A stretch of 64,000 bases of DNA from the IMG/VR virus record IMGVR_UViG_3300042894_003937. One strand, given 5' to 3'. The notes below the pieces were generated by a model. That model was not told where the DNA came from. It saw nothing but the letters and a program-made list of their open reading frames with translations, and did not search any database. Both the position numbers and the translations under genes were made by a program. The DNA comes from a virus (Duplodnaviria > Heunggongvirae > Uroviricota > Caudoviricetes). Shown here one piece after another: positions 6,115 to 60,341 of this stretch (its first letter is position 1; each line of letters opens with the position of its first letter).

Positions 6115-6813
6115 ATGACAAAAACTACTACAGACTTTACAATAAATCAAAAATTTGACTTTTTAAGTGACTTAACTACTATGGTAGTAAACAATACTAC
6201 ACCATCCATCGTGGTTGTGGGACAAGGTGGACTAGGAAAAACTCACTCTGTGTTAGCAACCATCAAAGACAATGATGTTGATGAAAGTAATTTCTTATTC
6301 ATTAAAGGTTACTCAACTGCGAGAGGTCTTTATAATACTTTATATGATAATAACGGAAAACTGATCGTATTTGACGACTGTGACTCTGTGTTAGAAGATA
6401 AAATCGCACTTAACATCTTAAAATCAGCTCTTGACTCTTACGAAAAAAGAACAATAACTTGGTCTGCTCGTATGAATAAAGCAGATGTTTATCCACAATC
6501 ATTTGATTTCACTGGAAGAATTATCTTTATTTCTAATAAAGACAAATCTAAAATTGATGGTGCTATCTTATCAAGAAGTTTAACTGTTGATTTGAGTATG
6601 ACACCAGATGAAAAAATCGAAAGAATGGAATACATCTTACCTAACATCTTACCAGACTATGAGTTAGCAGTTAAGAAAGATGCTTTAAAATTCTTATCAG
6701 AGAATAAAGAAAGTGATAACTTGAACCTTAGAACATTGATAATGGTGTCTAAAATTAGACATTCTTACAAGAATACTTGGCAAGACTTATCAAACTATAT
6801 GATAAATTCATAA
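6115..6813 (+). CDS. P-loop NTPase (Walker A GQGGLGKT, Walker B LIVFDDCD)
   Basis: 232 aa with both Walker motifs. Confidence 0.6.
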   Translation: MTKTTTDFTINQKFDFLSDLTTMVVNNTTPSIVVVGQGGLGKTHSVLATIKDNDVDESNFLFIKGYSTARGLYNTLYDNNGKLIVFDDCDSVLEDKIALNILKSALDSYEKRTITWSARMNKADVYPQSFDFTGRIIFISNKDKSKIDGAILSRSLTVDLSMTPDEKIERMEYILPNILPDYELAVKKDALKFLSENKESDNLNLRTLIMVSKIRHSYKNTWQDLSNYMINS

Positions 6814-8205: not shown

Positions 8206-8413
8206 TATAGGATATGAAGCTACTCACCGTGGTGAAGCAGGGAATGTAAGAATTGTATTTAAGAGAGGTCAAGTATATGATACGTTATCTGAATATGATA
8301 ACTGTTATATGTTCTTATTTGACCACGACATTTATATTATAAAAAAACTGTACTTTCTGACATTAGAACAAGTAGCTAAGAGAAAACTATTCTCGTTTAA
8401 CAAAAAAGCTTAG
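8189..8413 (+). CDS. small hypothetical protein
   Basis: 74-aa ORF. Confidence 0.4.
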   Translation: MKVICNIGYEATHRGEAGNVRIVFKRGQVYDTLSEYDNCYMFLFDHDIYIIKKLYFLTLEQVAKRKLFSFNKKA

Positions 8414-9237
8414 GTTATTTTTTTACCTATTTTCAATTTTATTGAGTACAATCCATATCTTTTAGTAAACTGTTCAGTATCAATATTATCAATAATAACA
8501 TCCTCACACGAGTAGTAATATTTGCTACCCATAAAGGTTTGAAAACAAACAAACTCACTCTTTTTACAATCAAAATCCTCAAAATGAAAGTTGAATAAGT
8601 TATATTGTTTTGACAACATATGTAAGAATGGTATGAAATGATCTTTTACTTCATCCCAAGTAAATATCTGTGTAACACCTGATATTTTAATTACTACTTC
8701 GGTCATATGACCACCATACTGTTCAGTATATTCAACCTCAAAGTTTTTATCTGTAAGGTAAGCTAAGTGAGTATCACAGAAGTCTTCAAGTTCTTCTTTT
8801 GGTGATAAACTCTCATTAAGTTGTTCTTTCTCACCAGATAAATATATATCTATGTAAGATACTACCTCAGTGGATAGTTTATCTAACTGATTTTCAAAGT
8901 TATCTCTGATTACTAAATTTATAGTAGGTCCTAAAATTTTAATTTCACTGATTTCATATTCCTTTTCTAATCTTACACAAAAAGGAATAAAATGATCCTT
9001 AATATCACCCCAATTAAAATCTTCTCTTTCTACACCTCTCTCCGCTCTCTGTTTTAAAGTTAAAGATTCTTTTTTAATTCCAATTGAAACATTTCCTATT
9101 GCATATTGTTGACCAACTCTTATTCGGAAACCTTCATCCATAAGATAAGCTAAATTAGTCTCACAATACTCAGTAAGTTCATTCTTTTGATCTCTCGACC
9201 ATCTATCAAATGCTTCAAATAATTTTATATACTTCAT
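8410..9237 (-). CDS. Fam-A paralog, two-domain (two LAYL..DHFIPF units)
   Basis: MKYIKLFEAF..; EYCETNLAYLMDEGF and DFCDTHLAYLTDKNF; GDIKDHFIPF and DEVKDHFIPFLHML. Confidence 0.7.
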   Translation of the reverse strand: MKYIKLFEAFDRWSRDQKNELTEYCETNLAYLMDEGFRIRVGQQYAIGNVSIGIKKESLTLKQRAERGVEREDFNWGDIKDHFIPFCVRLEKEYEISEIKILGPTINLVIRDNFENQLDKLSTEVVSYIDIYLSGEKEQLNESLSPKEELEDFCDTHLAYLTDKNFEVEYTEQYGGHMTEVVIKISGVTQIFTWDEVKDHFIPFLHMLSKQYNLFNFHFEDFDCKKSEFVCFQTFMGSKYYYSCEDVIIDNIDTEQFTKRYGLYSIKLKIGKKIT

Positions 9238-9668
9238 TTCTTATCATTTATTGTTATAGAGATCTTATCGAGCATCAAATATTTTAAATCTTCTTCATCA
9301 AGTAAATCTTGTAATGAATAACAAATACCACGCATACTTTCATCATATATTACATACGGTTTATCTGACCTATTACTGGATGAATCCTCTAATTCATAAC
9401 GTCTTTCTAATAGTTGTAAAAATGGTAAAATCCTATCTTTTACTGAATCCCAAGAAGTACCTTCATCTTTCTCTATACTTATATTTATACATCTACTATC
9501 AACTGGTATATAACCTTTTTTGGTATTCCAAATCCTAAAATCTATTTCCCAACCTTCATCAACTAAATAAGCTAATGATTGTTCAGTAAGATCCTTTACC
9601 TCTTCTAAAAGATTATCATAATATAATTCAACATCTTTCCAAGATTCAAATAAATTTATATACTTCAT
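9234..9668 (-). CDS. Fam-A paralog
   Basis: MKYINLFESW..LAYLVDEGW..DSVKDRILPFLQLL; ATGA overlaps on both sides. Confidence 0.7.
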   Translation of the reverse strand: MKYINLFESWKDVELYYDNLLEEVKDLTEQSLAYLVDEGWEIDFRIWNTKKGYIPVDSRCINISIEKDEGTSWDSVKDRILPFLQLLERRYELEDSSSNRSDKPYVIYDESMRGICYSLQDLLDEEDLKYLMLDKISITINDKK

Positions 9669-10525
9669 CTTTCCTTTACTATTATTCTTATCCTAGTATA
9701 AAACTTATTGGTAAGCCACTGATCTGCTTCACCACTTACAAGCTCTTCTATATCTTTTCTAGTATCATATTGGTACTGTCTTCCACCATTTTGATAAAAT
9801 ACTATTTCTAAAATATGATACTCTTTATTCAACATATAAATATACGGTGACAATCTATCAGTAATCTCCTCCCAAGTGAAACCCGAACGTTTAACTATTC
9901 TCGTACAAATACAACCAGCATAATTATTAGAACGGTCTGTTACCGGATTATCAGTAGTACCAATCTCAAACCCATCATCCATAAGGTAAACTAAACGATC
10001 CTGAGTAAATTCAAGAACATCATCTTTAAGACTTTCATTAGTTCTCAGTTGCCAAGAATACTGACCAACACTATGATCTAATACAACTACCCTAACAGAA
10101 CTAATTAAAGTAGCATGTTCATAAGAATGATTTTTATAACCTTTAGTCAAACTGAAAATCTTTTCTTTTACCTTGTCATCAATAACATCCTGAAAACTCA
10201 TCTTAACTTGAGCACCTCCTCTAATTTGAAAAAAGATTAAGTTATCCTTAATATCATACTGCTTATCTAAAATCTGTAGAAATGGTATAAATCTATCCTT
10301 TATATGATCCCAATCCATCCAATCAACCGTTCCACCAGCACCAGGTACCCAATTACCATACTGAGTATTATATTTAGGATTAACCAAATCTATTTGAGTT
10401 ACTCTACCGGATTCTCTAAAGTCTAAAGCATAACCATCATCTAACAAATAAGCTAGATACTGCTCACAGAAATCTTTTATCTCACCTGGTTCAATTGCTT
10501 CATTAAATTTCTTTAAGTATCTCAT
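9665..10525 (-). CDS. Fam-A paralog, two-domain
   Basis: MRYLKKFNEA..DFCEQYLAYLLDDGY..IKDRFIPFLQIL plus a second LVYLMDDGF..ITDRLSPYIYML unit. Confidence 0.7.
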   Translation of the reverse strand: MRYLKKFNEAIEPGEIKDFCEQYLAYLLDDGYALDFRESGRVTQIDLVNPKYNTQYGNWVPGAGGTVDWMDWDHIKDRFIPFLQILDKQYDIKDNLIFFQIRGGAQVKMSFQDVIDDKVKEKIFSLTKGYKNHSYEHATLISSVRVVVLDHSVGQYSWQLRTNESLKDDVLEFTQDRLVYLMDDGFEIGTTDNPVTDRSNNYAGCICTRIVKRSGFTWEEITDRLSPYIYMLNKEYHILEIVFYQNGGRQYQYDTRKDIEELVSGEADQWLTNKFYTRIRIIVKER

Positions 10526-10543
10526 AGAACTATATATTAAATC

Positions 10544-10996
10544 CTATTTTTGATCTTCATGCAACAAAATGTAAAAAGAAATACTAACAACATTATCTAA
10601 TGAAACCGTATCTAAATCTTGAATCTTATAATATGAAGTTGATGGTATATTATCCTCATCACGACAAGTAAAGATTATATCATCACCATTATGTTTATAA
10701 ACCTCTAAAATATGATACTTCTTCTTTAAATGATAAACAAATGGAATAAATTGATCTTTAACTTCATCAAAACTAAATGGATTGAATGTATAATGAGGAT
10801 CACTTTCTTCTCTTTTAAGAAAAATAAAGGTAGAAACTAGTTGATTATTTGCATTCACAAAAGTATCACTTCTAAATGAGTAACCATCATCTGCTAAATA
10901 AGCTAAATGAGTAGAACAAAAATCATCCAACTCTTGTCGTAATGCTTTTCTTTGTGGACGATTTAAAGCCTCGTTAAACCTTTTTAAATGTTTCAT
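10544..10996 (-). CDS. Fam-A paralog
   Basis: MKHLKRFNEA..DFCSTHLAYLADDGY..DEVKDQFIPFVYHL. Confidence 0.7.
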   Translation of the reverse strand: MKHLKRFNEALNRPQRKALRQELDDFCSTHLAYLADDGYSFRSDTFVNANNQLVSTFIFLKREESDPHYTFNPFSFDEVKDQFIPFVYHLKKKYHILEVYKHNGDDIIFTCRDEDNIPSTSYYKIQDLDTVSLDNVVSISFYILLHEDQK

Positions 10997-11011
10997 ATAT
11001 TATTTTATTTT

Positions 11012-11944
11012 TTAGTAAAATTGTACTTGTAATTCATAGAATTGTTCAGGAACATCCTGATCCTTTATAACATTTCTAATATCCATATAATAAAAATCTG
11101 CATCATAAACATCAGGTAAGAATCTGTCAAACACAATCGTTCTGTTTCTAGGATTATCATCTATGTAAACTGCCTTTTTTTGCATATGACGAACAATTTT
11201 TTCACGTGGCTCAATACTATACTCTCTTATCAACATATGTAAAAAAGGTATAACCTGATCTTTAACATCATTCCACTGAATTAGATCTTGAGCTCCTTCT
11301 ATAGTACGTCCATCATAACTAATATTTCTTGTTAAACTAACAAAGTAAGATGGTGATGCTCTGTAACCAGACATTTCCCATGTTACACTTAATTGATAAG
11401 TAGTATCATCTAAAAGATTTGCCAAGTAATTTGAACAGAACTCTCTAACATCATCGACACCACCGGCAGATTCATTATAACTCTTTAAGTATCTCATTAA
11501 AGATTCTTGTTCTTTAGTATCATTCTCTAACATTATTTCAATATATTGAATCTCATCATCATCTTCATACCAATTATCCACAACTCTTATAAACTTCTCA
11601 TAAGTGAATTCTCTTGATTCATGTCTCTGACGAACTTCAATCACTGAACCATTATCAGAACCAGAATCATCAAACTTATAATTCTTATGTAACTGAATCA
11701 CAAATGGAACAACATGATCTTTAACTTCACCCCAGTTGAAATTAGTTCTCATTACCTGACCTGAACCTAAATCAACTGTCTTACATAAAATAACCGAAAC
11801 AAATCGAGAAGGTTTCTTCCAATCAGTATCTTCAATTCTTATCTCAAAGTCAGGATCATCCAATAAGTAAGCCAAGTTTGTCTCACAGAAATCTTTCAAC
11901 TCATCTTTATCTAAACTCTCAAAAATCCTTTTTAAATATTTCAT
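11012..11944 (-). CDS. Fam-A paralog, fused doublet (internal MRYLKSYNES leader)
   Basis: MKYLKRIFES..DFCETNLAYLLDD..GEVKDHVVPFVIQL, then internal MRYLKSYNES..EFCSNYLANLLDD..NDVKDQVIPFLHML. Confidence 0.7.
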   Translation of the reverse strand: MKYLKRIFESLDKDELKDFCETNLAYLLDDPDFEIRIEDTDWKKPSRFVSVILCKTVDLGSGQVMRTNFNWGEVKDHVVPFVIQLHKNYKFDDSGSDNGSVIEVRQRHESREFTYEKFIRVVDNWYEDDDEIQYIEIMLENDTKEQESLMRYLKSYNESAGGVDDVREFCSNYLANLLDDTTYQLSVTWEMSGYRASPSYFVSLTRNISYDGRTIEGAQDLIQWNDVKDQVIPFLHMLIREYSIEPREKIVRHMQKKAVYIDDNPRNRTIVFDRFLPDVYDADFYYMDIRNVIKDQDVPEQFYELQVQFY

Positions 11945-12825
11945 TTTGTATCTTCTTTTTCTGTTAAAATAATCTGTAATCTAATTCTAATATCACCAAA
12001 ATAATACTGACCTGCAGCAGTCTTAAAAGACATAACAATCTTCTTACTAGCAAAATTATCCGATAAACTTAATAAAATCTTATCAGCAGCATCCTGTGCG
12101 AAAAACTCAACCTGATTCAATATATCAGATCTAAAATTAGATAACGGAACTGGCTTCTTAAATTGATTAGTAGTGAATACTCTCATCGGTTCAGACCTTA
12201 CACCAATTATCACATTCTCATATATAATACCTGTTCTTAAAATAGATTGCCACTCTTCCGTAGTAAGTGCTCTCTCCATAGAAATTGCTGTCATTGGTTC
12301 AATATTATCAGGACTTTTAGTAACCCTAACCCCTTCAAATCCAGAATCCAATAACTCAACCAAATAATGTTCTACATCATCTGTCTTTAATTCAACAGAC
12401 TCTTTAATAGGTTTCTTTTTTTCAGACCTGTAAGTCCAAGATTTGAGATCTACCCAAACTAAAATCTGTATTAAAGGTTCATTATCATATACATTTGGTA
12501 AAGGATTACCAGATAAAATTGTTTCAATATCAAACTCCGTATCATCATCTCCATCATAAAACTCTATAGTCTGATCTATTATATTATAATCTCTGTTTAA
12601 CATATGTAAAAATGGAATATATGACTCTTTAACATCTAACCAAGTAAAATCAATCACCTCATTATCAACCTTACCCAAACTTATCAAAAATGTCTTATTA
12701 TTATTTGTAGGTGAAACTTGTATTTTGTAACCATCATCTAACAAATAAGCTAGATAAGACTCACTAAAATCACGTAGCTGTGATTCTATATCAACAGACT
12801 CATTAAATCTTTTTAAATATCTCAT
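11941..12825 (-). CDS. Fam-A paralog with C-terminal extension
   Basis: MRYLKRFNES..DFSESYLAYLLDDGY..LDVKESYIPFLHML. Confidence 0.7.
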   Translation of the reverse strand: MRYLKRFNESVDIESQLRDFSESYLAYLLDDGYKIQVSPTNNNKTFLISLGKVDNEVIDFTWLDVKESYIPFLHMLNRDYNIIDQTIEFYDGDDDTEFDIETILSGNPLPNVYDNEPLIQILVWVDLKSWTYRSEKKKPIKESVELKTDDVEHYLVELLDSGFEGVRVTKSPDNIEPMTAISMERALTTEEWQSILRTGIIYENVIIGVRSEPMRVFTTNQFKKPVPLSNFRSDILNQVEFFAQDAADKILLSLSDNFASKKIVMSFKTAAGQYYFGDIRIRLQIILTEKEDTK

Positions 12826-13292
12826 TCTACCAATTTATTTTTCATTCCAACCTGAAGTGTAATCTCTAATAAAGGAACATCATCATATCTACCAGGTAAA
12901 GGATCACCAGATAAAACATCCTTAATCGAAACACAAAAGTTTTGACTACCATTATATAAACAAATACAAGGAACATCCCATTGTCCTGCGTTTCTACTTG
13001 CTTCACCTTTATCCATTATCTCATACTGCTTATCTAACATATGTAAAAAAGGAATATAAGAATCTTTAACCTCATTCCAAGTAAAACCAGTTGCTTTTCC
13101 CCATCCTAAATCCCAATTTAATTTACATAGATTTATATTATAATCATCTTCTTCTCTTCCTAAATAACCGTGTCCGTTCCAGATAACAGATAATTCAAAA
13201 TCACCATCCAACAAATAAGCTAGATAAGTCTCACAGAAATCTCTTAAATCTTTCTCTAAATCAACAGATTCAAATGTTTTTAAATACCTCAT
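12822..13292 (-). CDS. Fam-A paralog
   Basis: MRYLKTFESV..DFCETYLAYLLDGDF..NEVKDSYIPFLHML. Confidence 0.7.
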   Translation of the reverse strand: MRYLKTFESVDLEKDLRDFCETYLAYLLDGDFELSVIWNGHGYLGREEDDYNINLCKLNWDLGWGKATGFTWNEVKDSYIPFLHMLDKQYEIMDKGEASRNAGQWDVPCICLYNGSQNFCVSIKDVLSGDPLPGRYDDVPLLEITLQVGMKNKLVE

Positions 13293-13759
13293 ATCTTTAT
13301 AGTATTTTTTACTACAATACCAATCTCTTTTATATCATCACCAGTCCAATAATCTGGTCTTTTCACAAGTCTTTGACCCCAATCCTCAATCTCATCTGCT
13401 TTCAAAAATAATTGATTTCCCGACATAAAATTGATAATAATACTCGACTCCCTCTGATCTAAATCTTTATCATTCAAATCATACTCTCTTGATAAAATAG
13501 TAACAAATGGAATATAATAATCTTTAATGTCATTCCAATGAAAAGGTTGAATACGACGATCCACTAAAGTTTTACCCAACCATATAATATACGAGTCCCA
13601 GGCAGATTTAGCTCCAGACCTTTCAGTATCAATAACTTCTATCTTAAAACTCGTATCATCCAATAAGTAAGCTAAATAAGTCTCACAGAAATCTTGTAAC
13701 TCTACTTCATCAACCTGACTATATAAATCGTTCTCGAAAATCTTTTTTAAATATTTCAT
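13289..13759 (-). CDS. Fam-A paralog
   Basis: MKYLKKIFEN..DFCETYLAYLLDD..NDIKDYYIPFVTIL. Confidence 0.7.
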   Translation of the reverse strand: MKYLKKIFENDLYSQVDEVELQDFCETYLAYLLDDTSFKIEVIDTERSGAKSAWDSYIIWLGKTLVDRRIQPFHWNDIKDYYIPFVTILSREYDLNDKDLDQRESSIIINFMSGNQLFLKADEIEDWGQRLVKRPDYWTGDDIKEIGIVVKNTIKI

Positions 13760-14202
13760 ATCTTACGTTTTACTTTAAACATTATTTTTCTAACTGGTTG
13801 ATTACCCGGTATTAAATCATTTAGTATCTTTTCCTTTGGTACATTCGCGCCTGAAAAATCTACCAAATTATTAACAAGACTTCCGTCTTTCATACTACGA
13901 GAAACACTAGGTATCAATTCATAATTATCTATCAAAACTTTGAAGAATGGTATAAAATAATCAGATACATCATCCCAAGTAGCATTAGGATAACTATGTG
14001 ATCCATCAGCATTCGTTTCATATCTTCTCCAAATCATACAGTCATAATAACCAGTATTTGGATAAACTGAAGTTCTCATAGCAATGTCTATTCGCCAATT
14101 ACCATCATCTAATAAGTAAGCTAAATACATCTCACAGAAATCTTTTAACTGCTCATACTCATCTCTATTGACCTCTTCAAAAATTTTTCTTAAATACTTC
14201 AT
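13756..14202 (-). CDS. Fam-A paralog
   Basis: MKYLRKIFEE..DFCEMYLAYLLDDGN..DDVSDYFIPFFKVL. Confidence 0.7.
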   Translation of the reverse strand: MKYLRKIFEEVNRDEYEQLKDFCEMYLAYLLDDGNWRIDIAMRTSVYPNTGYYDCMIWRRYETNADGSHSYPNATWDDVSDYFIPFFKVLIDNYELIPSVSRSMKDGSLVNNLVDFSGANVPKEKILNDLIPGNQPVRKIMFKVKRKI

Positions 14203-14216
14203 ACTCTATATATTAT

Positions 14217-14636
14217 TTAAAAATTTCTAAACCACGCTTTTTCAACCCTTTCTCCCTTTTTAACAACCCTAATGTATAAAGTAGCTATCTCAGTATCATC
14301 TGGTAAATCATTTATCTGATTTAATGTTAAAGGCTTTTGTTTAATACCAGAACCACCATGAAAAACAATACCCATAGCAGGTTCAACATCATTATCATAA
14401 TATAATTCGTAATACTTAAATAGAAAATGTAAGAAAGGTAGAACCTGATCCTTTACTTCAGACCATAAAAAATTAATTGGCTCAGAAGTACCCAACATTA
14501 TCTGATGATAATCATCTCCTTCAAACTTTGAAATCCTTACTTTAAAACCCTCATCTAACAAATAAGCTAAATTAGTCTCACAGAAATCTAATAACTCTTC
14601 TTTTAAACTCTCATTGAACTTTCTCAAATGTTTCAT
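14217..14636 (-). CDS. Fam-A paralog
   Basis: MKHLRKFNES..DFCETNLAYLLDEGF..SEVKDQVLPFLHFL. Confidence 0.7.
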   Translation of the reverse strand: MKHLRKFNESLKEELLDFCETNLAYLLDEGFKVRISKFEGDDYHQIMLGTSEPINFLWSEVKDQVLPFLHFLFKYYELYYDNDVEPAMGIVFHGGSGIKQKPLTLNQINDLPDDTEIATLYIRVVKKGERVEKAWFRNF

Positions 14637-14644
14637 ACCTAATC

Positions 14645-15490
14645 TTATTTTTCTTTAATCATAATACCCACCGAATATATACCTTGCTTATCCGAATAAG
14701 AACCAAATAAAGTATCATTCACCACCGAATATAACGGGAAATCACTAAACGCCTCATCAGTATAACCATGATGTAATCTAAACCTAACCTGACTTGTCGA
14801 ACGACCATCTTTCCTCGGATTACCAAATCCAATAATCTGATACCTATTATGTAATAACTTTAATAACGGTATGTAATAATCCTTTATATCATCCCAAGTG
14901 AAAGTATCACTCTTAAGCGCATATTGATTACTAAGTGATAACCAAATCGCAGTAGTATCATCCTCTGAACCTCTAGGAATAAAAATACGAAAACCCTCAT
15001 CCAATAAATAAGCTAAACAACTTTCTACGAAATCCGTTAACTCATCCTTATCTATACTCTCATTAAACATCTTCAAATGTTTCATACCATCCTTTTTAAC
15101 CACAATCGAAAAACTATAAAATAACATATCATCTCGTAAATCCTCTAACCGATCTATATCCTTAATATGTATATCATCCGAATAAGTCGCTTCTATCCTA
15201 ATAATCGATGAACTGCCCTCATAACCCACCTGATACCTATTAGATAACATCTGTACAAAAGGAATAATACGATTCTTTACCGATGACCACTCAACATCAT
15301 CATGATGAATCCTATTGTTTCTAACCGACCTAGGCGATAACAAAACAATCTTATACGATGTAGTAAATCCCCACACCGATACCGACCACTCATCATCGAT
15401 AAGATAAGCTAAGTAATCATTAGCAAACTCCTGTAACTCTGCCCTTTTATCAGTAGATTCATCATTGAAAGCTTCATTCAAATACTTCAT
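14645..15490 (-). CDS. Fam-A paralog, fused doublet (internal MKHLKMFNES leader)
   Basis: First unit EFANDYLAYLIDDEW..SSVKNRIIPFVQML; second unit starts with an intact internal leader MKHLKMFNESIDKDELTDFVESCLAYLLDEGF..DDIKDYYIPLLKLL. Confidence 0.7.
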   Translation of the reverse strand: MKYLNEAFNDESTDKRAELQEFANDYLAYLIDDEWSVSVWGFTTSYKIVLLSPRSVRNNRIHHDDVEWSSVKNRIIPFVQMLSNRYQVGYEGSSSIIRIEATYSDDIHIKDIDRLEDLRDDMLFYSFSIVVKKDGMKHLKMFNESIDKDELTDFVESCLAYLLDEGFRIFIPRGSEDDTTAIWLSLSNQYALKSDTFTWDDIKDYYIPLLKLLHNRYQIIGFGNPRKDGRSTSQVRFRLHHGYTDEAFSDFPLYSVVNDTLFGSYSDKQGIYSVGIMIKEK

Positions 15491-15924
15491 ACCTTTTCAC
15501 CTTTAATTTTAAATTGAATTGTATAAATCTTATAATCATCACGAAGACGACTAGAAGGAACAATCTGCTCCGATATAATATCATCCATATTAAACCAATC
15601 AGAATATGTACTCTCCAAACCAATTATCTCAATTCTTACATTAGGCGAAACAAGCCTACGATCCATCGTAACTAAATCATACCCATTTCTTAAATGTGTC
15701 AAAAATGGTATAACCTGATCCTTTATCTGACCCCACCTCTTATTAGCAAATAATCTAAATGATAACGTCACCTTATAATCTATAATCTTTAAATCAAAAT
15801 AATCTGGTGAAACCAAAACCCTTAAACCATCATCCATCAAATAAGCTAAGTGAGTCTCACAGAAATCTTGTATATCTTGCTCAGTTAAATCTTTATTCTC
15901 ATTATATCTTCTCAAATGTTTCAT
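15487..15924 (-). CDS. Fam-A paralog
   Basis: MKHLRRYNEN..DFCETHLAYLMDDGL..GQIKDQVIPFLTHL. Confidence 0.7.
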   Translation of the reverse strand: MKHLRRYNENKDLTEQDIQDFCETHLAYLMDDGLRVLVSPDYFDLKIIDYKVTLSFRLFANKRWGQIKDQVIPFLTHLRNGYDLVTMDRRLVSPNVRIEIIGLESTYSDWFNMDDIISEQIVPSSRLRDDYKIYTIQFKIKGEKV

Positions 15925-15927
15925 ACA

Positions 15928-16464
15928 TTATTTATTATTTTCAAAGTTAATTAAAATCGGATCTTTGTAAATATATCCATTTTCAATTCTCTGTGTTTGT
16001 TTAGCATTAGGCCAATAAGAAACAAGTTTATATAAACTTTCACATACTTTTATTGAATTTTTATATTCTTTTCTTACTTCACCATTTACTATCCATTTAT
16101 TTCCATGTACATATACCTGATTCGATTTCTTTTCTTTAATATCTTCCATATTATTATAAAATATTATCTCACTATGCCACTGAATATCAAAAAATATACT
16201 ATACTTTTCCATTCCTAGCTTTGTACCCTGATATATCACATCTTCAATATCATCTATATTATGATGACCTGTCAAAATAATATCAATATCAAGTGGTGTA
16301 CCTTCATCATTTAGTAATTTATTCGCAAAACTTCCTAATAACAAAACATCAAATTTTTCCGCATTCGGTATTTTAAAAAAATCCTCTCGCCAAGCAAAAA
16401 ATGACTCTACACTTGGCGACTTCCAATTTATATCTATATCTATTTTTCCGTATTTTATATTCAT
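15928..16464 (-). CDS. putative nucleotidyltransferase (pol-beta superfamily motif GS-x15-DIDI)
   Basis: LLLGSFANKLLNDEGTPLDIDIILTG fits hG[GS]..[DE]h[DE]h; further acidic residue in FFDIQ; 178 aa. Confidence 0.45.
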   Translation of the reverse strand: MNIKYGKIDIDINWKSPSVESFFAWREDFFKIPNAEKFDVLLLGSFANKLLNDEGTPLDIDIILTGHHNIDDIEDVIYQGTKLGMEKYSIFFDIQWHSEIIFYNNMEDIKEKKSNQVYVHGNKWIVNGEVRKEYKNSIKVCESLYKLVSYWPNAKQTQRIENGYIYKDPILINFENNK

Positions 16465-16590
16465 TATTCTAATTTATTTTATCACTCACTAAACCCCTAC
16501 GTGCGTCAGCACGTTTACGACTCCGACGACCCACATTCTTCTTGCCGAAGGCAACGACTCCACCGAAACCCAATTGGTCCCACCACAATC
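16465..16590 (-). other. GC-rich intergenic island with three short palindromes (candidate structured leader / ori / pac-like element)
   Basis: acgtgcgtcagcacgt, ttgccgaaggcaa, ccaattgg; direct repeat acgactcc x2; compositional outlier in an AT-rich genome; immediately upstream of the nucleotidyltransferase start. Confidence 0.4.
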
Positions 16591-17034
16591 CTAATCCTTC
16601 TTTAAACCCTTAACCGTCAACTTAACCGTAGTAACCAAAAAATCCGGTGCTCCATCATTTACTATCTGATCCACCGTAAATACCTTCTTATTTATATCCA
16701 ACTGCTCGGTACTATAAAAATGAATCCATTCAGACAAATCATACCTCCTAGATAATATACGAACCAACGGGATAAACCTATCCATCACCAAAGAATAATC
16801 ATATAACTTATTAGTAAATCTGCCTATTTGGTCTGGACGACCATCAGTTAAAGATAACCTTATATCAAACTCACCATTCCAAGCCGGTCTTATCTCATAC
16901 GTAAATCCATCATCCGACAACGGTGCCAAAAATTGCTCACATAAATCATCCAACCCATCCTGTAAATCATCACCTTTCAACCTAACATAAAAATCTGACT
17001 CCATAAAACTTTTTAAATACCTCATCATATACAT
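16591..17034 (-). CDS. Fam-A-like paralog (divergent)
   Basis: MYMMRYLKSFMES..DLCEQFLAPLSDDGF..MDRFIPLVRIL. Confidence 0.65.
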   Translation of the reverse strand: MYMMRYLKSFMESDFYVRLKGDDLQDGLDDLCEQFLAPLSDDGFTYEIRPAWNGEFDIRLSLTDGRPDQIGRFTNKLYDYSLVMDRFIPLVRILSRRYDLSEWIHFYSTEQLDINKKVFTVDQIVNDGAPDFLVTTVKLTVKGLKKD

Positions 17035-18229: not shown

Positions 18230-18273
18230 CTGAATTAAGGTAAATATACGTAAAATATGGGTAGCTACCAAAA

Positions 18274-18302
18274 GTGTATAAAATCCGGTCGTTTTTTATA
18301 CA
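18274..18302. promoter_or_regulatory. palindromic element P1 (gtgtataaaa-N9-ttttatacac); adjacent palindrome GGTAGCTACC at 18260-18269
   Basis: 10-bp perfect inverted arms; near-identical copies at 20265-20294 and 22456-22485; about 130 bp upstream of the RHH gene. Confidence 0.45.
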
Positions 18303-18432
18303 AATTTTTAGTTGATCCTATTCGTGTTTGTAAGGTTGTCCCAAAACCTTTTTCGTGGTCATTACATTTATTTGCGATTGTGGATAACTTTTCGCATTAT
18401 TTAGAATATATATAGAAAGAAAATAGTTGACG

Positions 18433-18624
18433 ATGTTTGAAAGAGCGAAGAAAGGTTTTAAACCACCTAAACCAAAAAAGCAAAGGATAAACTTCTTTAT
18501 GAACAAAGAGGTGTATGACCAGTTTGAGTTGTACTGTGATGCGAACCAATATAAGAGAAACGAATTGATTGAATGTATCTTAGAAGAGTTTCTGAATAAG
18601 TATGGAACAGATAAAAAAAGGTAG
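18433..18624 (+). CDS. ribbon-helix-helix (CopG/Arc-like) DNA-binding protein
   Basis: KKQRINFFMNKEVYDQFELYCDANQYKRNELIECILEEFL: beta-strand/helix/helix pattern typical of RHH; ORF track begins at TTG 18427, ATG at 18433. Confidence 0.55.
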   Translation: MFERAKKGFKPPKPKKQRINFFMNKEVYDQFELYCDANQYKRNELIECILEEFLNKYGTDKKR

Positions 18625-18625
18625 A

Positions 18626-18751
18626 ATGAAAGATATGTTACCAGTGGGTTCATTTTATGTTACCTATGAAGATGTTAGACCATATTGGAGACCTGTTATA
18701 CTAGCGAGAAAGTATAAGATTAAAAGGATTCTGTCATGGCGATTCCTTTAG
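18626..18751 (+). CDS. tiny basic peptide, Fam-D (..WRPVILARKYKIKRILSWRFL), 41 aa
   Basis: Translated by hand; below the ORF-track cut-off; shares the RKxKIKRI core with seven other tiny ORFs. Confidence 0.35.
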   Translation: MKDMLPVGSFYVTYEDVRPYWRPVILARKYKIKRILSWRFL

Positions 18752-18762
18752 TCCCATATGGT

Positions 18763-18864
18763 ATGAGTTATGCTGATTGGGCTAAACGGGTTCATAGACC
18801 GACGAATTTAAAGTGGATAAGAAAGAACTCACGAATGAGAAAGATTAAAAGGATATATGAATAA
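18763..18864 (+). CDS. tiny basic peptide, Fam-D (MSYADWAKRVHRPTNLKWIRKNSRMRKIKRIYE), 33 aa
   Basis: Hand translation; RMRKIKRIYE core. Confidence 0.35.
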   Translation: MSYADWAKRVHRPTNLKWIRKNSRMRKIKRIYE

Positions 18865-18868
18865 TGAT

Positions 18869-18905
18869 AAAACCCACTTAATAGTGGGTTTATCTGTTAT
18901 TATTT
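18869..18905. terminator. hairpin terminator aaaacccact-taat-agtgggttt plus T-rich tail; identical copy at 21755-21790
   Basis: 9-10 bp GC-containing stem, 4-nt loop, followed by atctgttattattt. Confidence 0.55.
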
Positions 18906-18929
18906 ATATACTATTATAAAAAAAAATAA

Positions 18930-19451
18930 TTAAAATGCGTATTGATCAAATGATTTATATCTTTCTCCTTCTTTATATTTATCAAATTTCACTCTTGTAG
19001 ATGTACCGTTATAAATATAACCTTCATTAAATTCTAAAATATATGTTAAATTCCCATCTTTGTAAGAAATTGATTCTTGATCAACATCTAAAACTTCGAA
19101 GTCTTGACCATCTATTGTTATGTAATCATTATTAGGTTGATAGTTTAAACTAATGTTACCTTGAACGGCAGTATTTATAAATTGTTGGGAATTGATAATA
19201 TAATTTTCATTTCCGGGGTTATAATATTTAAGTACTAATTCGGCATTTATCACGAATCCTTTTTCAGGATTTATGTGTTTTTGTTTAACTACGTTTTCTA
19301 TGTTATCATCGGGTGTACATGATTGAAAAGGACTTCCAAGTAGACATGCACCCATAGCGGCACCAATAATTGCTTTCTTACCGAAGTTTGCTAAGCCTTC
19401 GTTAGTTTCTTCACTTTTAGTGAATTTATTAAAATCGTTTAAATATTTCAT
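18930..19451 (-). CDS. secreted/lipoprotein-like protein with Fam-A-type leader (MKYLNDFNKF)
   Basis: Hydrophobic segment AIIGAAMGACLLGSPFQSC after the leader. Confidence 0.55.
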   Translation of the reverse strand: MKYLNDFNKFTKSEETNEGLANFGKKAIIGAAMGACLLGSPFQSCTPDDNIENVVKQKHINPEKGFVINAELVLKYYNPGNENYIINSQQFINTAVQGNISLNYQPNNDYITIDGQDFEVLDVDQESISYKDGNLTYILEFNEGYIYNGTSTRVKFDKYKEGERYKSFDQYAF

Positions 19452-20169: not shown

Positions 20170-20264
20170 TTTCATTATAAAATAGGTTGGAGTCTACTCT
20201 TCTGATCTTATCAACCCGTCATCCAATACAAAGATAAGAAGATTATATGGTTCTACCAAGTAAA

Positions 20265-20294
20265 GCGTATAAAATCCGTACGTTTTTTACACGC
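20265..20294. promoter_or_regulatory. palindromic element P2 (gcgtataaaatccgtacgttttttacacgc)
   Basis: Copy of P1/P3; shares upstream tatgg.t.ctaccaa with the P1 flank. Confidence 0.45.
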
Positions 20295-20334
20295 TTTATA
20301 ATAAAACTTATCATTACAGGTTCTATATAATTAT

Positions 20335-20457
20335 ATGGGTTGGGTAAATAAGAATGTTTGGATAGATGAACCAGAGGATGATGGGATAAGTCATTTCAAG
20401 TTTTTGAGAAGGATTAGAAGGAAAACAAAGATAAAAAGGTTATTTGTCTGTATTTAA
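20335..20457 (+). CDS. tiny basic peptide, Fam-D (..HFKFLRRIRRKTKIKRLFVCI), 40 aa
   Basis: Hand translation; RRKTKIKRLF core. Confidence 0.35.
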   Translation: MGWVNKNVWIDEPEDDGISHFKFLRRIRRKTKIKRLFVCI

Positions 20458-20764
20458 AGGAAAGTGTATTGTGGAGAAAGGTGATATAGTGCAAAGCACT
20501 CTCTGCGTGGGTGGAGTATTAGTTTGTAGGAAGACTTATTGTAGATATGTTTTATATAATCGTAGTTGGTCGAGAAATATAAGTGGTAAGAGTTATATTA
20601 TAATGGCGATAAAGGAAAGTGTAAATGTTTATGTTTCTAATGAAGAGGGAGGTTCTATGTTATTTTCTTTATATGATGATGGTAAGTTACCATATTTAGG
20701 GGATTATTTTATTTCGTTGGTGGATTTTCGTGAGGAAAAATTAGAACAAATTATAGGTAAATGA
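20444..20764 (+). CDS. small protein with C-terminal tail motif (..DFREEKLEQIIGK); start may be the internal ATG at 20603
   Basis: 106-aa ORF; stop overlaps the purN start (ATGA). Confidence 0.45.
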   Translation: MSVFKGKCIVEKGDIVQSTLCVGGVLVCRKTYCRYVLYNRSWSRNISGKSYIIMAIKESVNVYVSNEEGGSMLFSLYDDGKLPYLGDYFISLVDFREEKLEQIIGK

Positions 20765-21336
20765 AAAAGATTATACTTTTTGCTTCGGGTAATGGTTCTA
20801 ATGTTGAGAATATCATTGAATATTTCAATGCAGGTGAAGTTACTGTTGTGGGTGTTTTTACTAATAACTCAAATGCTAAGGTTTTAGAAAAGGTTAGTAG
20901 GTATGGTATTCAAACGGTAATTTTCAGTAGGGAAGATTTTACTTCGGGATTTGTTTTAGATAAGATAATTTCGTTTGAACCGGATTTAATTGTTTTGGCG
21001 GGATTTCTTTGGAAGATACCTGAATCGATTATTAGTTATTATACTAATAGAATAATCAATATACATCCTTCTTTATTACCAAAATATGGAGGAAAGGGTA
21101 TGTATGGAATGAATGTTCATCAATCTGTTTTAGACAATCGTGACAAGGAAACTGGGATTACTATTCATTATGTGAATAATGATTATGATGATGGTGAATT
21201 CATTTTTCAACAAAGTGTGATGATTGATGATTGTTTTTCCGCTGCTGATATTGCGGTTAAAATACATGAGTTGGAATATAGGTATTTACCTGTTGTAATA
21301 AAAAGAATACTGATTGGATATGAAAAATTGGGATAA
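20761..21336 (+). CDS. purN: phosphoribosylglycinamide formyltransferase
   Basis: ILFASGNGSN, LIVLAGFL, NIHPSLLPKYGG and H..V..G.TIHYV are collinear with PurN. Confidence 0.88.
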   Translation: MKKIILFASGNGSNVENIIEYFNAGEVTVVGVFTNNSNAKVLEKVSRYGIQTVIFSREDFTSGFVLDKIISFEPDLIVLAGFLWKIPESIISYYTNRIINIHPSLLPKYGGKGMYGMNVHQSVLDNRDKETGITIHYVNNDYDDGEFIFQQSVMIDDCFSAADIAVKIHELEYRYLPVVIKRILIGYEKLG

Positions 21337-21562
21337 TTTGGCTGTTACAGATAAGTTTAACATTACTGGTCGTGGAGTTGTGTTGATTGTTGATTTCATT
21401 AAGTCTGGTTTATGTACAGAGGTATGGGAGAAGGATTTACCGAAAATTGACGTGGGAGACACGATTTTATATGAAGGTATAACTTATACTATACGAGCTA
21501 TAGATAGTTCAAGGAACACGTTTAATGGTCGTTTAATGACAAGGATAGGAGTATTGGTTTGA
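21314..21562 (+). CDS. hypothetical protein
   Basis: 82-aa ORF overlapping the purN end. Confidence 0.45.
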   Translation: MDMKNWDNLAVTDKFNITGRGVVLIVDFIKSGLCTEVWEKDLPKIDVGDTILYEGITYTIRAIDSSRNTFNGRLMTRIGVLV

Positions 21563-21564: not shown

Positions 21565-21699
21565 ATGGATTTAAAATTGAGGATTACGGACTCTATTGAG
21601 AGGAAGTTGGGTTTAAAGGATTCGGGGTTGATAAGTTCTTATTCGTTATATAATACGATTAGGCGGATGCAGATTATAAGTAATTTGTTTAAAAAATAA
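21565..21699 (+). CDS. tiny basic peptide, divergent Fam-D (..LKLRITDSIERKLG..IRRMQIISNLFKK), 44 aa
   Basis: Hand translation; Arg-rich; same island type. Confidence 0.3.
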   Translation: MDLKLRITDSIERKLGLKDSGLISSYSLYNTIRRMQIISNLFKK

Positions 21700-21754
21700 C
21701 CGGATTTTAAACAATGAGACTTGGTATTCTATATTAGAATGAGTTGGATATGAT

Positions 21755-21790
21755 AAAACCCACTTAATAGTGGGTTTATCTGTTATTATT
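21755..21790. terminator. hairpin terminator identical to the one at 18869-18905
   Basis: gataaaacccacttaatagtgggtttatctgttattattt. Confidence 0.55.
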
Positions 21791-21799: not shown

Positions 21800-22390
21800 T
21801 TAGTTGTATACTCTGATTTCTATTGGACTTGATTGTAAAAGGTCATTAAACGGTGTATTATCATAAGAAGTATGTAACTGCATAGTTCCTGTAGTTGTTA
21901 AATCAATTCCTAATATATAGGTGCCACCACTTCCACCATAAGGTAAACCCATAGCCCATGTTTTATTAGTAAACGCTCCATTTATTATATATCCTCCTAC
22001 TCCATTATAAGAAAAAGTAGGTGTAAATCCTAAAGTATTTTCTAACACAACAGCAGTTGGAGCTGCTGTACCACTCTGTGTTAATAAAGCAGTATAAACT
22101 GAGTATAACGGTAATGCAGATGTTCCGGAAGTACCATTTAAACCAGAGGTTCCAGAAGTACCATTTATACCAGAAGTTCCAGAGGTTCCAGAGGTTCCAG
22201 AAGTACCATTTATACCAGAAGTTCCATTTATACCAGAAGTACCAGAGGTTCCAGCTATACCAGAAGTTCCAGAAGTACCAGAGTTTGATTGTGTTAAACC
22301 AGCTAACTGATCTTCTAAATAGTGAAAGTTGTTATCCATTTGAGCAACTGATAATGCTCCGTCTTGTTCTGATCTATATGTAATACCCAT
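21800..22390 (-). CDS. collagen-like repeat tail-fibre-like protein, short paralog (Gly-Thr-Ser triplets)
   Basis: N-terminal 33 aa identical to the 22497..24305 product; (GTS)n/(GIN) triplet run; shared C-terminal domain ending PIEIRVYN. Confidence 0.7.
22287..22390. repeat. about 104-bp near-identical repeat (fibre gene 5' end), copy 1
   Basis: Matches 24202..24305 apart from a few substitutions. Confidence 0.6.
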
Positions 22391-22455: not shown

Positions 22456-22485
22456 GTGTATAAAATCTGTACGTTTTTTATACAC
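22456..22485. promoter_or_regulatory. palindromic element P3 (gtgtataaaatctgtacgttttttatacac)
   Basis: Copy of P1/P2; lies in the upstream region of the short fibre gene. Confidence 0.45.
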
Positions 22486-22496: not shown

Positions 22497-24305
22497 TTAG
22501 TTATATACTCTTATTTCGATTGGAGTTCTTAATATTAAATCGTCTGCACCAGTACTACTCTGATTAGTTGCTATATATATATCATTAGAAGTAGTGTCTT
22601 CATTATCAACATAAAAGTCATAATCATTGATAGCCCAATGATTTTTACAAAAGAACACTACGGTTTTTAATAAAGGAAATCCACCAGTACTACTTAAAAA
22701 ATATAAACCGGGAGAGTCTCTATTCCAAACGGGAGTAAAACCTAAAGTATTTTCTAACACAGAGGCTGTTGGTGATGCTGTACCACTCTGTGTTAATATA
22801 GCGGTATAAACTTTATATTTTGGTGCATAAGCCGTAGTTTGAACCGAATTATCTGGGAATGTTATACTTCCAGTTGTACCAAATACCCAGTTTTCAGGTC
22901 CATCATTATCACCAGTTTGTATAGTAACAGTTCCATTATCAGCAATCACTCTACCACTCTGATAACGAATTATTTCTATATCTATTCCAGTTATAGCCAA
23001 ACTCGCAGTTGGTGCATTCTGGTCCACGGTTAAAACTATTGGGTTTGACTGGACCTTATTCGTGATATTTAGGCTTACTGCTGTAGTTGGATCGTAAAAC
23101 ACTGTAAATATGTCTGTTGCTACTTGATAACCGTTTATGAAATTTACTAGAGTTGAATCTGGATTAGTAATAGTTATCAGATTGCCAGACCATGTAGCAG
23201 AATCATAGTTAGATCCTACAGAGCAACTTGCAGAATCTTGAGTGTATAAATTCTTTGAATTTATTTGTACTGTTTTACTAGTGTCACTAACTTTTAAGTT
23301 ATTATCTTCACCACCAATGAATAGATCAGTTGCACTATCATCGATAGGACCACCTGCACGAATATGTATATGATTAGGACTTCCTTCAGTAGGATCTAAT
23401 ATAATGTATTGGTCAGTTTCTAAAGAAGAATCTGGTTTTAATACTATTATTGGACCAAGACCAAGATTGACTGATTCTATTTGACTACCATTAGAATTTA
23501 TAGCACCAGTAATATTCACATCACCATCTACATCTAAAGCTACTGATGGATTGGTTGTTCCTATACCTATCTTACCATCATTAGTAATTCTCATTCTTTC
23601 ATCACCATCAGTTTGCACGATTACGTTTCCTCCCGCGGTGCCTCCACCTCCTGCGTTTATAACGATATTACCACCAGTATTAGCTCCGTAACCAGATTCA
23701 ATGTATACTTCACCACCATAACCATTATTACTTTGTCCTGCATATATTTCAACAAAACCACCATCACCTGTATCTGTGTATCCACCTCTTATCTTAACTG
23801 TACCTCCTTCTGAGATACCTTCTCCTGCATCAACTTTAATATCTCCACCATTTTGTCCTTTACCGGCCCATAGGTAAATGTCTCCACCTTCGCCACTGTA
23901 GGTAAGTCCATTTTGATAACTATCACCACCAGATATGACTAATCTTTCAACGGTCGGAGCAGATCCTGTTCCATCTTGAGTTGATATGATTTTTTGGTAT
24001 ACACTTCCTTTTTCAAATTGAAGGTTATCTCCGCTTCCTGTTCTTTGGTTACCTGGTAAGAATGGAAAACTAATTGCACCGGTTGTACCAAACCCTGCAG
24101 GTCCTGTAGCACCTTGTGGTCCAGTAGGTCCTTGAGGTCCTGTAGCACCATTTATACCAGAAGGTCCTGTAGCACCGGCAGGTCCAGTAGCACCAGAACC
24201 AGAGTTTGTTAAACCAGCTAACTGATCTTCTAAATAGTGAAAGTTGTTATCCATTTGAGCAACTGATAATGCACCGTCTTGTTCTGATCTATATGTAATA
24301 CCCAT
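22497..24305 (-). CDS. collagen-like repeat tail-fibre-like protein, long paralog
   Basis: 602 aa; G-X-Y collagen-like repeats (GATGPAGATGPSG..); Gly-rich beta-rich middle; C-terminal domain shared with the short paralog. Confidence 0.75.
   Translation of the reverse strand: MGITYRSEQDGALSVAQMDNNFHYLEDQLAGLTNSGSGATGPAGATGPSGINGATGPQGPTGPQGATGPAGFGTTGAISFPFLPGNQRTGSGDNLQFEKGSVYQKIISTQDGTGSAPTVERLVISGGDSYQNGLTYSGEGGDIYLWAGKGQNGGDIKVDAGEGISEGGTVKIRGGYTDTGDGGFVEIYAGQSNNGYGGEVYIESGYGANTGGNIVINAGGGGTAGGNVIVQTDGDERMRITNDGKIGIGTTNPSVALDVDGDVNITGAINSNGSQIESVNLGLGPIIVLKPDSSLETDQYIILDPTEGSPNHIHIRAGGPIDDSATDLFIGGEDNNLKVSDTSKTVQINSKNLYTQDSASCSVGSNYDSATWSGNLITITNPDSTLVNFINGYQVATDIFTVFYDPTTAVSLNITNKVQSNPIVLTVDQNAPTASLAITGIDIEIIRYQSGRVIADNGTVTIQTGDNDGPENWVFGTTGSITFPDNSVQTTAYAPKYKVYTAILTQSGTASPTASVLENTLGFTPVWNRDSPGLYFLSSTGGFPLLKTVVFFCKNHWAINDYDFYVDNEDTTSNDIYIATNQSSTGADDLILRTPIEIRVYN
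24202..24305. repeat. about 104-bp near-identical repeat (fibre gene 5' end), copy 2
   Basis: Matches 22287..22390. Confidence 0.6.
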
Positions 24306-33236: not shown

Positions 33237-33253
33237 ATGGTTTATTTATTTGT

Positions 33254-33353
33254 AGTCAGGACAGGATTCGAACCTGTATGTAACTTTATGTTTCCACTCC
33301 GTCTATAGTTACTACGGTATACTTAGCGTCTTACCAATTCCGCCACCTGACTA
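33254..33353 (-). tRNA. tRNA-like gene (Leu-like D-arm; canonical acceptor and T arms; anticodon arm not resolved, about 100 nt)
   Basis: Minus-strand RNA AGTCAGG-TG-GCGGAATTGGTAAGACGC..ACAGG-TTCGAAT-CCTGT-CCTGACT; 7-bp acceptor stem, GGTTCGAATCC T-arm, GGCGGAATTGGTA D-arm; no canonical 5-7-5 anticodon arm found by hand. Confidence 0.45.
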
Positions 33354-34238: not shown

Positions 34239-34239
34239 T

Positions 34240-60340: not shown

Positions 60341-60341
60341 T

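Follow-up and report, generated by a model that had tools for sequence, protein, structure and literature searches.

A putative micro-protein family with a shared basic helix in mosaic loci of an AT-rich giant phage

The PeSL/ORFan cassettes of T4-type phages show a mosaic pattern in which related genomes carry different small genes at the same place (PMC2839356, PMC4122927), and the internal proteins of T-even phages form a hypervariable set with only a short targeting sequence in common (PMC3012670). A locus with features of both kinds was analysed in a 64,000-nucleotide stretch of Caudoviricetes DNA (IMG/VR record IMGVR_UViG_3300042894_003937), hereafter called the window. Eight tiny open reading frames (ORFs), labelled A to H, share the peptide motif R-[M/K]-x-K-I-[K/R]-[R/K]-[I/L]-F-[G/N], and some of them adjoin a conserved palindromic hairpin, hereafter called P. 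As judged from sequence comparison, these ORFs are very probably genuine protein-coding genes of a single family. Two of them lie within positions 18230-18930, which a first-pass annotation of the window had read as a regulatory island of arginine-rich peptides and hairpins.

Micro-protein genes and their coding signatures

The eight tiny ORFs had been proposed in the first-pass annotation, and all of them translate as written there. The same annotation had called 18230-18930 ORF-poor, with a 63-residue ribbon-helix-helix (RHH) protein as the one credible ORF. The RHH gene stands, but positions 18433-18864 are coding throughout, and the impression of scarcity arose because of an ORF length cut-off. 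The putative micro-protein genes of the window are as follows.

18602 to 18751, plus strand: H, 49 residues (41 if read from 18626), ending ..ARKYKIKRILSWRFL; overlaps the RHH stop codon
18736 to 18864, plus strand: E, 42 residues, MAIPLVPYGMSYADWAKRVHRPTNLKWIRKNSRMRKIKRIYE; 16-nucleotide overlap with H
20335 to 20457, plus strand: D, 40 residues, ending ..FKFLRRIRRKTKIKRLFVCI; many orthologues
21565 to 21699, plus strand: B, 44 residues, ending ..NTIRRMQIISNLFKK; 3' end enters P copy 4
57394 to 57546, plus strand: C, 50 residues, ending ..KLRRIEKIRRIFNG; last codons include the start codon of the next gene
57539 to 57643, plus strand: G, 34 residues, containing ..RARLRKHKIRRIFSMGIPEYWQNI
57649 to 57759, plus strand: F, 36 residues, containing ..SNVRKIKIMNIFMNIKK
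59749 to 59874, plus strand: A, 41 residues, ending ..SRMRAIRRMMKIKDIFEHD

Related sequences were compared at five syntenic loci (L002, L008, L010, L011 and L013) with 72-89% DNA identity to the window. A protein identical to H is called in NCBI record P0027 from the start at 18602, which is probably the start of this gene rather than 18626; H orthologues in L002, L008 and L010 are mosaic and keep YEDVRPYW together with the motif. Gene E almost certainly starts at 18736 (MAIPLVPYG...) and not at 18763, because the MAIPLVPYG N-terminus is conserved in its orthologues, of which ten were found with 71-81% identity across the full length. B is a divergent member (IRRMQIISNLF) with orthologues of 45-69 residues, and the best orthologue of A has an E-value of 2e-11. 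The G ORF is intact in L011 and L013, though uncalled as a gene there, and F is missing from L013. A ninth, start-less remnant of the family (..TKIRRLYGSTK followed by a stop) lies at about 20225-20263. A six-frame scan of the 64 kb with K[IM][KR][RKDN][ILM] gave 10 matches, seven of them near the C-termini of small plus-strand ORFs, and a stricter 10-residue pattern gave three matches against 0.24 expected in shuffles. A 14-residue hidden Markov model of the motif, run over the window, placed the eight ORFs among its top matches, mixed with several short chance ORFs, and found no further convincing member.

The nucleotide block that the first reading had noticed in common between 18726-18750 and 57598-57622 is real. 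The tail of G (..RRIFSMGIPEYWQNI followed by a stop) corresponds to the start of an E-type gene (MAIPLVPYG..YADW) that has been fused in frame through a 1-2-nucleotide indel and then truncated (57596-57643 compared with 18722-18765). Neighbouring micro-protein genes are fused in like manner in the database chimeras P0054, P0064, P0049 and P0070.

A search with a profile of the eight peptides returned 71 proteins from 5.8e9 sequences, all of 34-77 residues (best E-value 1.9e-11), which sort into one orthologue group per window ORF. The ORFs remain open in the syntenic relatives, even where the gene caller had skipped them. For seven orthologue groups pooled, the ratio of nonsynonymous to synonymous divergence (dN/dS) was 0.27, with a proportion of synonymous differences (pS) of 0.30 and of nonsynonymous differences (pN) of 0.098; flanking genes gave 0.155. 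By gene, the ratio was 0.15-0.37 for E, 0.22-0.41 for D, 0.15 for B, 0.09-0.16 for A and 0.39-0.73 for G. Deletion chimeras also keep the reading frame, joining the N-terminus of C to the C-terminus of G (P0054), H to E (P0064) and D to B (P0070). Frameshifts and stops in relatives had been named at first reading as the sign of a non-coding repeat; the open frames, the dN/dS of 0.27 and the in-frame chimeras therefore favour coding. In a tally of 47 motif instances, the invariant arginine eight residues before the final aromatic is encoded by AGA 17 times, AGG 12, CGT 11, CGA and CGG three times each and CGC once, that is, by all six arginine codons; the motif isoleucines use ATA, ATT and ATC, and the phenylalanine TTT and TTC. 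The first-pass annotation had taken codon differences between copies as an argument for peptide-level selection on a paralogous family, and this claim is borne out by the codon variety, the orthologue dN/dS and the open frames alike.

The family is previously undescribed and occurs within this phage lineage only, in which it has expanded: eight members lie in the window, and relatives carry 10-11 per 2-12 kb. A search of 1.84e9 protein representatives gave 16 clusters at an E-value of at most 1e-3, all of 35-82 residues, and the motif was not found there in any larger, domain-bearing protein. No relatives were found in GenBank phages, IMG/VR or GTDB genomes, and the carriers are metagenome contigs from ENA, JGI and Logan only. 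Searches with 26 members found no match in Pfam, PHROG or NCBIfam; a PDB sequence search with the micro-proteins gave none, and a literature search found no paper containing KIKRIF, KIKRLF or KIRRIF. A likeness of D-type peptides to ribosomal protein bS21 (..ALRRFKR..) has no Pfam match in its favour and was set aside.

An RHH-led operon, its hairpins and the mosaic locus

At 18230-18930 the RHH gene leads an operon that continues with two micro-protein genes, overlapping and translationally coupled, and closes with a bidirectional terminator. On the plus strand the order is P, 130 nucleotides without a conserved ORF, the 63-residue gene, the two overlapping small ORFs and a strong hairpin, after which comes a convergent minus-strand gene. 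The elements of this unit and the related elements downstream are listed here.

18275 to 18302, plus strand: P copy 1, stem of about 9-10 bp and conserved 10-nucleotide loop (UCCGGUCGUU); 47 nucleotides past the stop codon of a 78-residue gene
18303 to 18432, plus strand: conserved non-coding region, putative leader and promoter of the RHH operon (four-genome alignment)
18433 to 18624, plus strand: ribbon-helix-helix (Arc-like) regulator gene, 63 residues, with PHROG and PDB matches
18870 to 18891, unstranded: bidirectional intrinsic-terminator-like hairpin AAACCCACTTAATAGTGGGTTT, between convergent genes
20225 to 20297, plus strand: module of the start-less micro-protein 3' remnant and P copy 2; recurs in relatives
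20262 to 20297, plus strand: P copy 2, within that module
21685 to 21714, minus strand: P copy 4, inverted orientation, compensated stem (GTTTAAAA/TTTTAAAC)
21756 to 21777, unstranded: terminator hairpin copy 2, identical to 18870-18891
22456 to 22485, plus strand: P copy 3, between two minus-strand tail-fibre-like genes

The RHH identity given to the 63-residue protein at first reading was confirmed by Arc-like PHROG families (phrog_3180, Arc-like repressor, E-value 2.9e-7 over residues 18-62; phrog_876, 4.7e-7; phrog_582, 4.6e-4) and by an alignment of residues 13-56 to PDB entry 2kel_A (SIRV1 56B, E-value 0.014), a protein that we take to be the RHH regulator SvtR. No Pfam match was obtained at an E-value of 0.01 or below. 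The dN/dS of the gene was 0.06-0.22, and 54-66% of its synonymous sites have diverged between the window and L008 or L010. Despite this synonymous divergence, the roughly 190 nucleotides upstream of the gene contain long invariant blocks across four genomes; the stretch is a likely promoter, operator and perhaps structured leader. A 52-residue ORF called by JGI at 18257-18415 is spurious, with stops in L008 and L010 and no start in L002. No operator repeat was found there, and TAGTTGAY, considered as a candidate for one, was not enriched. Neither sigma-70-like sites (30 against 35.6 expected from shuffles) nor the Bacteroidetes-type TAnnTTTG (52 against 53 expected) were enriched.

The terminator proposed for the island was upheld by a terminator scan and by its fold energy: the hairpin at 18870-18891 has 9 bp (4 GC), passes the T-tract criterion on both strands and folds at -14.5 kcal/mol (z -5.0). 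Besides its identical copy at 21756, a further copy with one mismatch lies at 24358 on the minus strand, and a terminator-like hairpin of -8.9 kcal/mol is found at 59889-59912, 3' of gene A. Islands of this kind do have elements in common, as had been claimed.

The P core, GTATAAAATCCGnnCGTTTTTTA, occurs four times in the window (18276, 20267 and 22458 on the plus strand, 21690 on the minus strand) against 0.01 expected. Copy 1 folds at -6.1 kcal/mol (z -2.9), and the copies in general fold at -6 to -9 kcal/mol (z about -2.9) with a stem of about 10 bp. Covariation was assessed on 14 copies from four genomes, in which neither the loop nor the inner A4/T4 varies and the outer stem shows compensatory changes (GTAT/ATAC, GTTT/AAAC, GTGT/ACAC). 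Four pairs have changed on both sides, and the covariation score was 0.189 against 0.081 in shuffles, of which only three of 500 reached the observed score. All copies in the window lie 0-100 nucleotides downstream of stop codons, in either orientation, and all four fall within 18.2-22.5 kb; none was found near the micro-protein genes at 57.4 and 59.7 kb. The claim that the tiny ORFs sit beside conserved palindromes thus holds for the 18.2-22.5-kb stretch and fails at the two distant sites. No Rfam family matched these elements, either at the gathering threshold or at an E-value of 1 or below.

The P copy upstream of the RHH gene has its centre inverted, with flanks unchanged, in L008 (5640-5670, AAAAAACGACCGTATTTT) relative to L010 (5400-5430, AAAATACGGTCGTTTTTT), so that the RNA loop is changed and not conserved. 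The inverted centre looks like a loop flip of the kind expected of template switching at a DNA hairpin. The occurrence of P in both orientations, with one centre inverted, fits a strand-symmetric boundary element rather than a loop-specific RNA ligand; such an element could be an attenuator, an RNA-end hairpin or a DNA site. The tail-fibre-like genes on either side of copy 3 (21800-22390 and 22497-24305, both minus strand) have their first roughly 33 residues and their last residues (..PIEIRVYN) in common, and both carry collagen-like G-x-x 9-nucleotide repeats.

The gene content between the RHH gene and an 80-residue gene (window 21320-21562) is entirely different in the window, L002, L008 and L010. 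In the window this interval holds the terminator, the convergent gene, a methyltransferase-like gene, P, D, a 106-residue ORF (20444-20764) and a formyltransferase gene; in L002 it holds about ten motif instances in seven small ORFs and one gene of 124 residues; L008 and L010 carry other combinations. The module of about 70 nucleotides that joins the motif remnant to P is present in L008 as well as twice in L002 and recurs at junctions. Related loci contain 4-5 copies of P each, and in four genomes P is found clustered with arrays of micro-protein genes.

Taken together, 18230-18930 would form a single compact unit of transcription in a "hyperplastic" mosaic region, running from the boundary hairpin P through the conserved promoter and leader to the RHH repressor, the two micro-proteins and the bidirectional terminator. 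The Arc-like repressor would presumably autoregulate the unit. The micro-protein family would diversify by duplication, by deletion-fusion and by recombination at P hairpins and at motif-coding DNA, in the manner of T4 PeSL ORFan shuffling.

A further short element was observed in these loci. It is a 30-nucleotide double hairpin of the approximate sequence TAGTGCGAAGCACTCTCTGCGTACGCAGAG (GTGC-gaa-GCAC plus CTCTGCG-nn-CGCAGAG) that lies in frame inside ORFs, at 20487-20516 in the window, at about 6450-6480, about 6678-6708 and 11687 (minus strand) in L010, at about 6156-6186 in L008, and at about 4142-4172, 4232 (minus strand) and 4977 (minus strand) in L002. It forms an exact 30-nucleotide insertion in the 106-residue ORF of the window relative to L008, and another in the L010 orthologue of the 80-residue gene relative to the window. 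The insertion adds about ten residues (SAKHSLRRQS, VRSTLCVRRV or VQSTLCVGGV) and is present in several database micro-proteins (P0058, P0065 and P0077); most copies have TA or GTA at their flanks. It resembles a miniature mobile element, palindromic and inserted in frame, of the kind of the Rickettsia palindromic elements. A scan of IMG/VR for it gave chance matches only, inside an infA-like gene.

The motif helix and its possible role

Aligned on the final aromatic residue (position 0), the signature consists of a hydrophobic residue at -10, R at -9 and -8, M or K at -7, any residue, K at -5, I or V at -4, K or R at -3, R, K, N or D at -2, I or L at -1 and F at 0. Glycine or asparagine usually follows and is probably a helix C-cap. 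The motif may be C-terminal, in the middle or N-terminal: in L002 it is N-terminal or central in proteins of 46-48 residues (5261, 5762 and 5906) and occurs twice in one protein of 90 residues. It is therefore a module and not a C-terminal signal. AlphaFold2, run on D with the family alignment, predicted a disordered N-terminus and a single helix at 16-38 with a predicted local distance difference test (pLDDT) score of about 85; for E, helices at 12-19 and 23-41 (19 residues) with an HRP turn between them were predicted at a mean pLDDT of 70, which suggests a helix-turn-helix-like packing. Each protein is in essence one long cationic amphipathic helix with a short variable segment that is often acidic or aromatic, and most members have a tryptophan upstream of the motif. 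The isoelectric point is 9.6-12 in seven of the eight proteins, the exception being A, the N-terminal half of which is acidic. The motif region has a net charge of +4 to +5, and a whole peptide at most +9. The motif helix contains 4-5 hydrophobic residues; its mean hydrophobicity is -0.1 to -0.3, compared with -0.77 for lambda N and -0.78 for P22 N, and its hydrophobic moment of 0.39-0.43 lies between those of the MinD (0.29) and FtsA (0.57) targeting sequences.

The same residues recur in the same order on otherwise unrelated mini-proteins, with the helix at either end, and this argues for a docking module. The helix would bring varied mini-proteins to one common target, and the variable part of each protein would supply its specific effect. 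The target would be polyanionic or acidic, either a nucleic acid or a protein of host or phage; given the high positive charge, RNA, DNA or an acidic protein groove would be the most likely. The micro-proteins may bind nucleic acid as such. Our confidence in the docking role is low, and the statement as a whole (a coding family, its mosaic cassette and the docking helix) is given a probability of about 0.55.

Several observations weigh against this statement. Some pairs of G and of C orthologues gave dN/dS values of 0.4-0.8, on very few sites. Among 25 paralogous motifs, pS in frame was 0.70, which is saturated, with pN at 0.32, and pN/pS in the other two frames was 1.1-1.3, but since a peptide pattern served to select the instances, the test is circular in part, and the saturated pS alone counts as independent evidence. 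A codon-usage score was weakly positive for the micro-protein ORFs and equally so for a non-conserved ORF, and codon-usage likelihood was dropped as evidence because it did not separate the two. JGI gene calling on L001, a near-identical contig of 7.4 kb with one mismatch to the window, called none of the family members of 18-22 kb. Docking is argued from the pattern of conservation alone. No promoter consensus was found adjoining P, the sequences downstream of its copies are dissimilar, and the PeSL analogy is therefore incomplete.

A bolder form of the docking idea, which is rather unlikely, would make the R-M-x-K-I-K-R-I-F helix a portable address tag for dozens of hypervariable micro-proteins in megaphages of about 640 kb. 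Its destination may be the capsid interior for co-injection, a hub protein of the host, or a specific structure in RNA or DNA, for instance P. Such a tag would amount to a new phage system for effector delivery or host takeover, built from proteins of 35-60 residues and mostly missed by gene callers.

The alternation of basic residues with Ile, Leu and Phe, the hydrophobic moment and the frequent C-terminal position could also suit a membrane-binding amphipathic helix of the MinD/FtsA, antimicrobial or "disruptin" type, acting in lysis, superinfection exclusion or a block of division. This is distinctly unlikely: lipid binding does not usually go with a strict residue order across unrelated paralogues, the charge density exceeds that of known membrane-targeting sequences, the motif can be internal or N-terminal, and the neighbours are the RHH gene and nucleotide-metabolism genes rather than lysis genes.

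The first-pass annotation had likened the peptides to lambda N-type arginine-rich RNA binders, acting on P or terminator RNA as antiterminators or RNA regulators within a dedicated system of peptides and hairpins. Their charge, the upstream tryptophan, the conserved loop and covarying stem of P, and its clustering with micro-protein arrays accord with this proposal, which is nonetheless highly doubtful. P is absent at 57.4 and 59.7 kb, stands in both orientations with an L008 centre whose RNA loop is not conserved, and lies past stop codons instead of promoter-proximally like a nut site. Its 10-nucleotide loop is no boxB-like pentaloop, there are many paralogues to one hairpin type, the hydrophobicity of the motif helix far exceeds that of the N and P22 N motifs, and the Pfam, PHROG and NCBIfam searches showed no similarity to N-like families. 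The antiterminator claim was accordingly not sustained, and on the same evidence the dedicated regulatory system is unsupported.

It is very unlikely, too, that the motif is a tag like the T4 capsid targeting sequence, with the micro-proteins packaged as DNA-neutralising or ejected anti-defence factors. Small and mostly basic proteins with one short motif, a variable remainder and mosaic loci do recall the hypervariable T-even internal proteins, whose loci are plastic and bounded by stem-loops (PMC2839356). Against this, the motif can lie elsewhere than at the N-terminus, no recurrent protease-cleavage-like pattern was found after it among the aligned instances, and the neighbouring genes are metabolic or regulatory rather than head genes. 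The chance that a non-coding element of DNA or RNA (a recombination site, promoter or translation-initiation signal) accounts for the repeat, with the ORFs incidental, is next to negligible, since, although the motif often ends 4-10 nucleotides before the next start codon and the module of remnant and P keeps its nucleotide sequence though it holds no intact ORF, the synonymous sites of the motif are saturated while its amino acids are kept in one frame only, orthologue dN/dS is 0.27, the genome does not use Shine-Dalgarno sequences, the motif also occurs far from any downstream start, and Rfam gave no matches.

On the preferred reading of a coding family with a docking helix, seemingly non-coding stretches of giant phages hold a selected, fast-shuffling micro-protein family with one common helix, and an entire class of their genes escapes notice when ORFs are filtered by length. 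If the docking or address role is correct, the helix would offer a handle on a central host or phage target of megaphage infection. The family is readily testable, as the peptides can be synthesised and the motif mutated.

Lineage, neighbouring features and known counterparts

The window has a G+C content of 30% and tightly packed phage-like genes, and its source is an AT-rich giant phage. Contigs bearing orthologues reach 635,260, 639,601 and 648,731 bp. To our knowledge, phages with genomes above 600 kb come from metagenomes only, and functions have been assigned to only a minority of their genes. No DNA-level match to the window was found in GenBank phages; for one window protein a short match was found in the 735-kb uncultured phage LR756501. 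Over the whole window, motifs resembling the Shine-Dalgarno sequence are depleted upstream of start codons (four of 86 genes, against a background of 8%), and leaders are A-rich, with 55-69% A at positions -17 to -3. A Shine-Dalgarno or translational-coupling signal (AAAAGGA before the next ATG), considered for the repeat, was ruled out by this depletion and by the motif at N-termini. We take the A-rich initiation without Shine-Dalgarno sequences to be the Bacteroidota style. A Bacteroidota host fits this lack of Shine-Dalgarno sequences, the A-rich leaders and the host prediction for phages above 634 kb (PMC7162821). The largest "Mahaphage" genomes, all predicted to infect Bacteroidetes, are of the same size class as the 635-649-kb relatives (PMC7162821).

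Three features elsewhere in the window stand apart from the micro-proteins. A set of about 20 or more paralogous genes, with products of about 140-310 residues in single or double units and nucleotide blocks 60-88% identical (for example ..AAATAAGCTA..TCACAGAAATC), is a large tandem expansion without a Pfam match. It occupies 8410-17034 (minus strand), 34183-35123 (plus), 39100-39636 (minus), 53703-54604 (minus) and 59930-61261 (plus). At 33253-33352 on the minus strand, within a gene-free gap of 822 nucleotides, Rfam reports a transfer RNA (tRNA) match over 100 nucleotides (37.3 bits, E-value 3e-4) and ARAGORN finds none; this may be an intron-containing or aberrant tRNA. At 36268-37074 on the plus strand, about ten tandem 69-nucleotide (23-residue) repeats, 60-88% identical, lie in a 416-residue protein (ORF 35980-37230), the matches of which are to PHROGs of unknown function only.

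Among known systems, the RHH product resembles the Arc/MetJ repressors (for example SIRV1 SvtR, 2kel), to which it aligns over the strand-helix-helix region, and its gene is likewise the first of its operon, with a conserved region upstream; in the window, P and the leader are both candidate RHH operators. The micro-proteins are like lambda N, P22 N and HK022 Nun in being short, basic and helical, with a tryptophan close to the basic segment and conserved hairpins nearby. They differ in the lack of homology, in the hydrophobic face of the helix and in the many paralogues without a nearby hairpin, and P differs in the length of its loop, its two orientations and its place after stop codons. With the MinD and FtsA helices and the cationic phage lysis peptides they share a short basic-hydrophobic amphipathic helix that is often C-terminal; here the motif is more charged, strict in residue order, variable in position and without a lysis-gene context.

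The closest functional analogue is offered by the T-even internal proteins, which are also small, mostly basic and otherwise unrelated, with one short motif and plastic loci (PMC3012670). The T4 tag, however, is a 10-residue N-terminal sequence cut off by the prohead protease, whereas the motif described here is a basic helix at either end of proteins that are 2-3 times smaller. In architecture the locus resembles the PeSL cassettes of T4-type phages, where short conserved intergenic hairpins border small orphan genes in hypervariable regions and related genomes vary by insertion, deletion and replacement of cassettes, with chimeric junctions. P differs from the PeSL stem of polyG/polyC in being AT-rich, with a conserved 10-nucleotide loop, and the genes shuffled here have a peptide motif in common, which the T4 ORFans do not.

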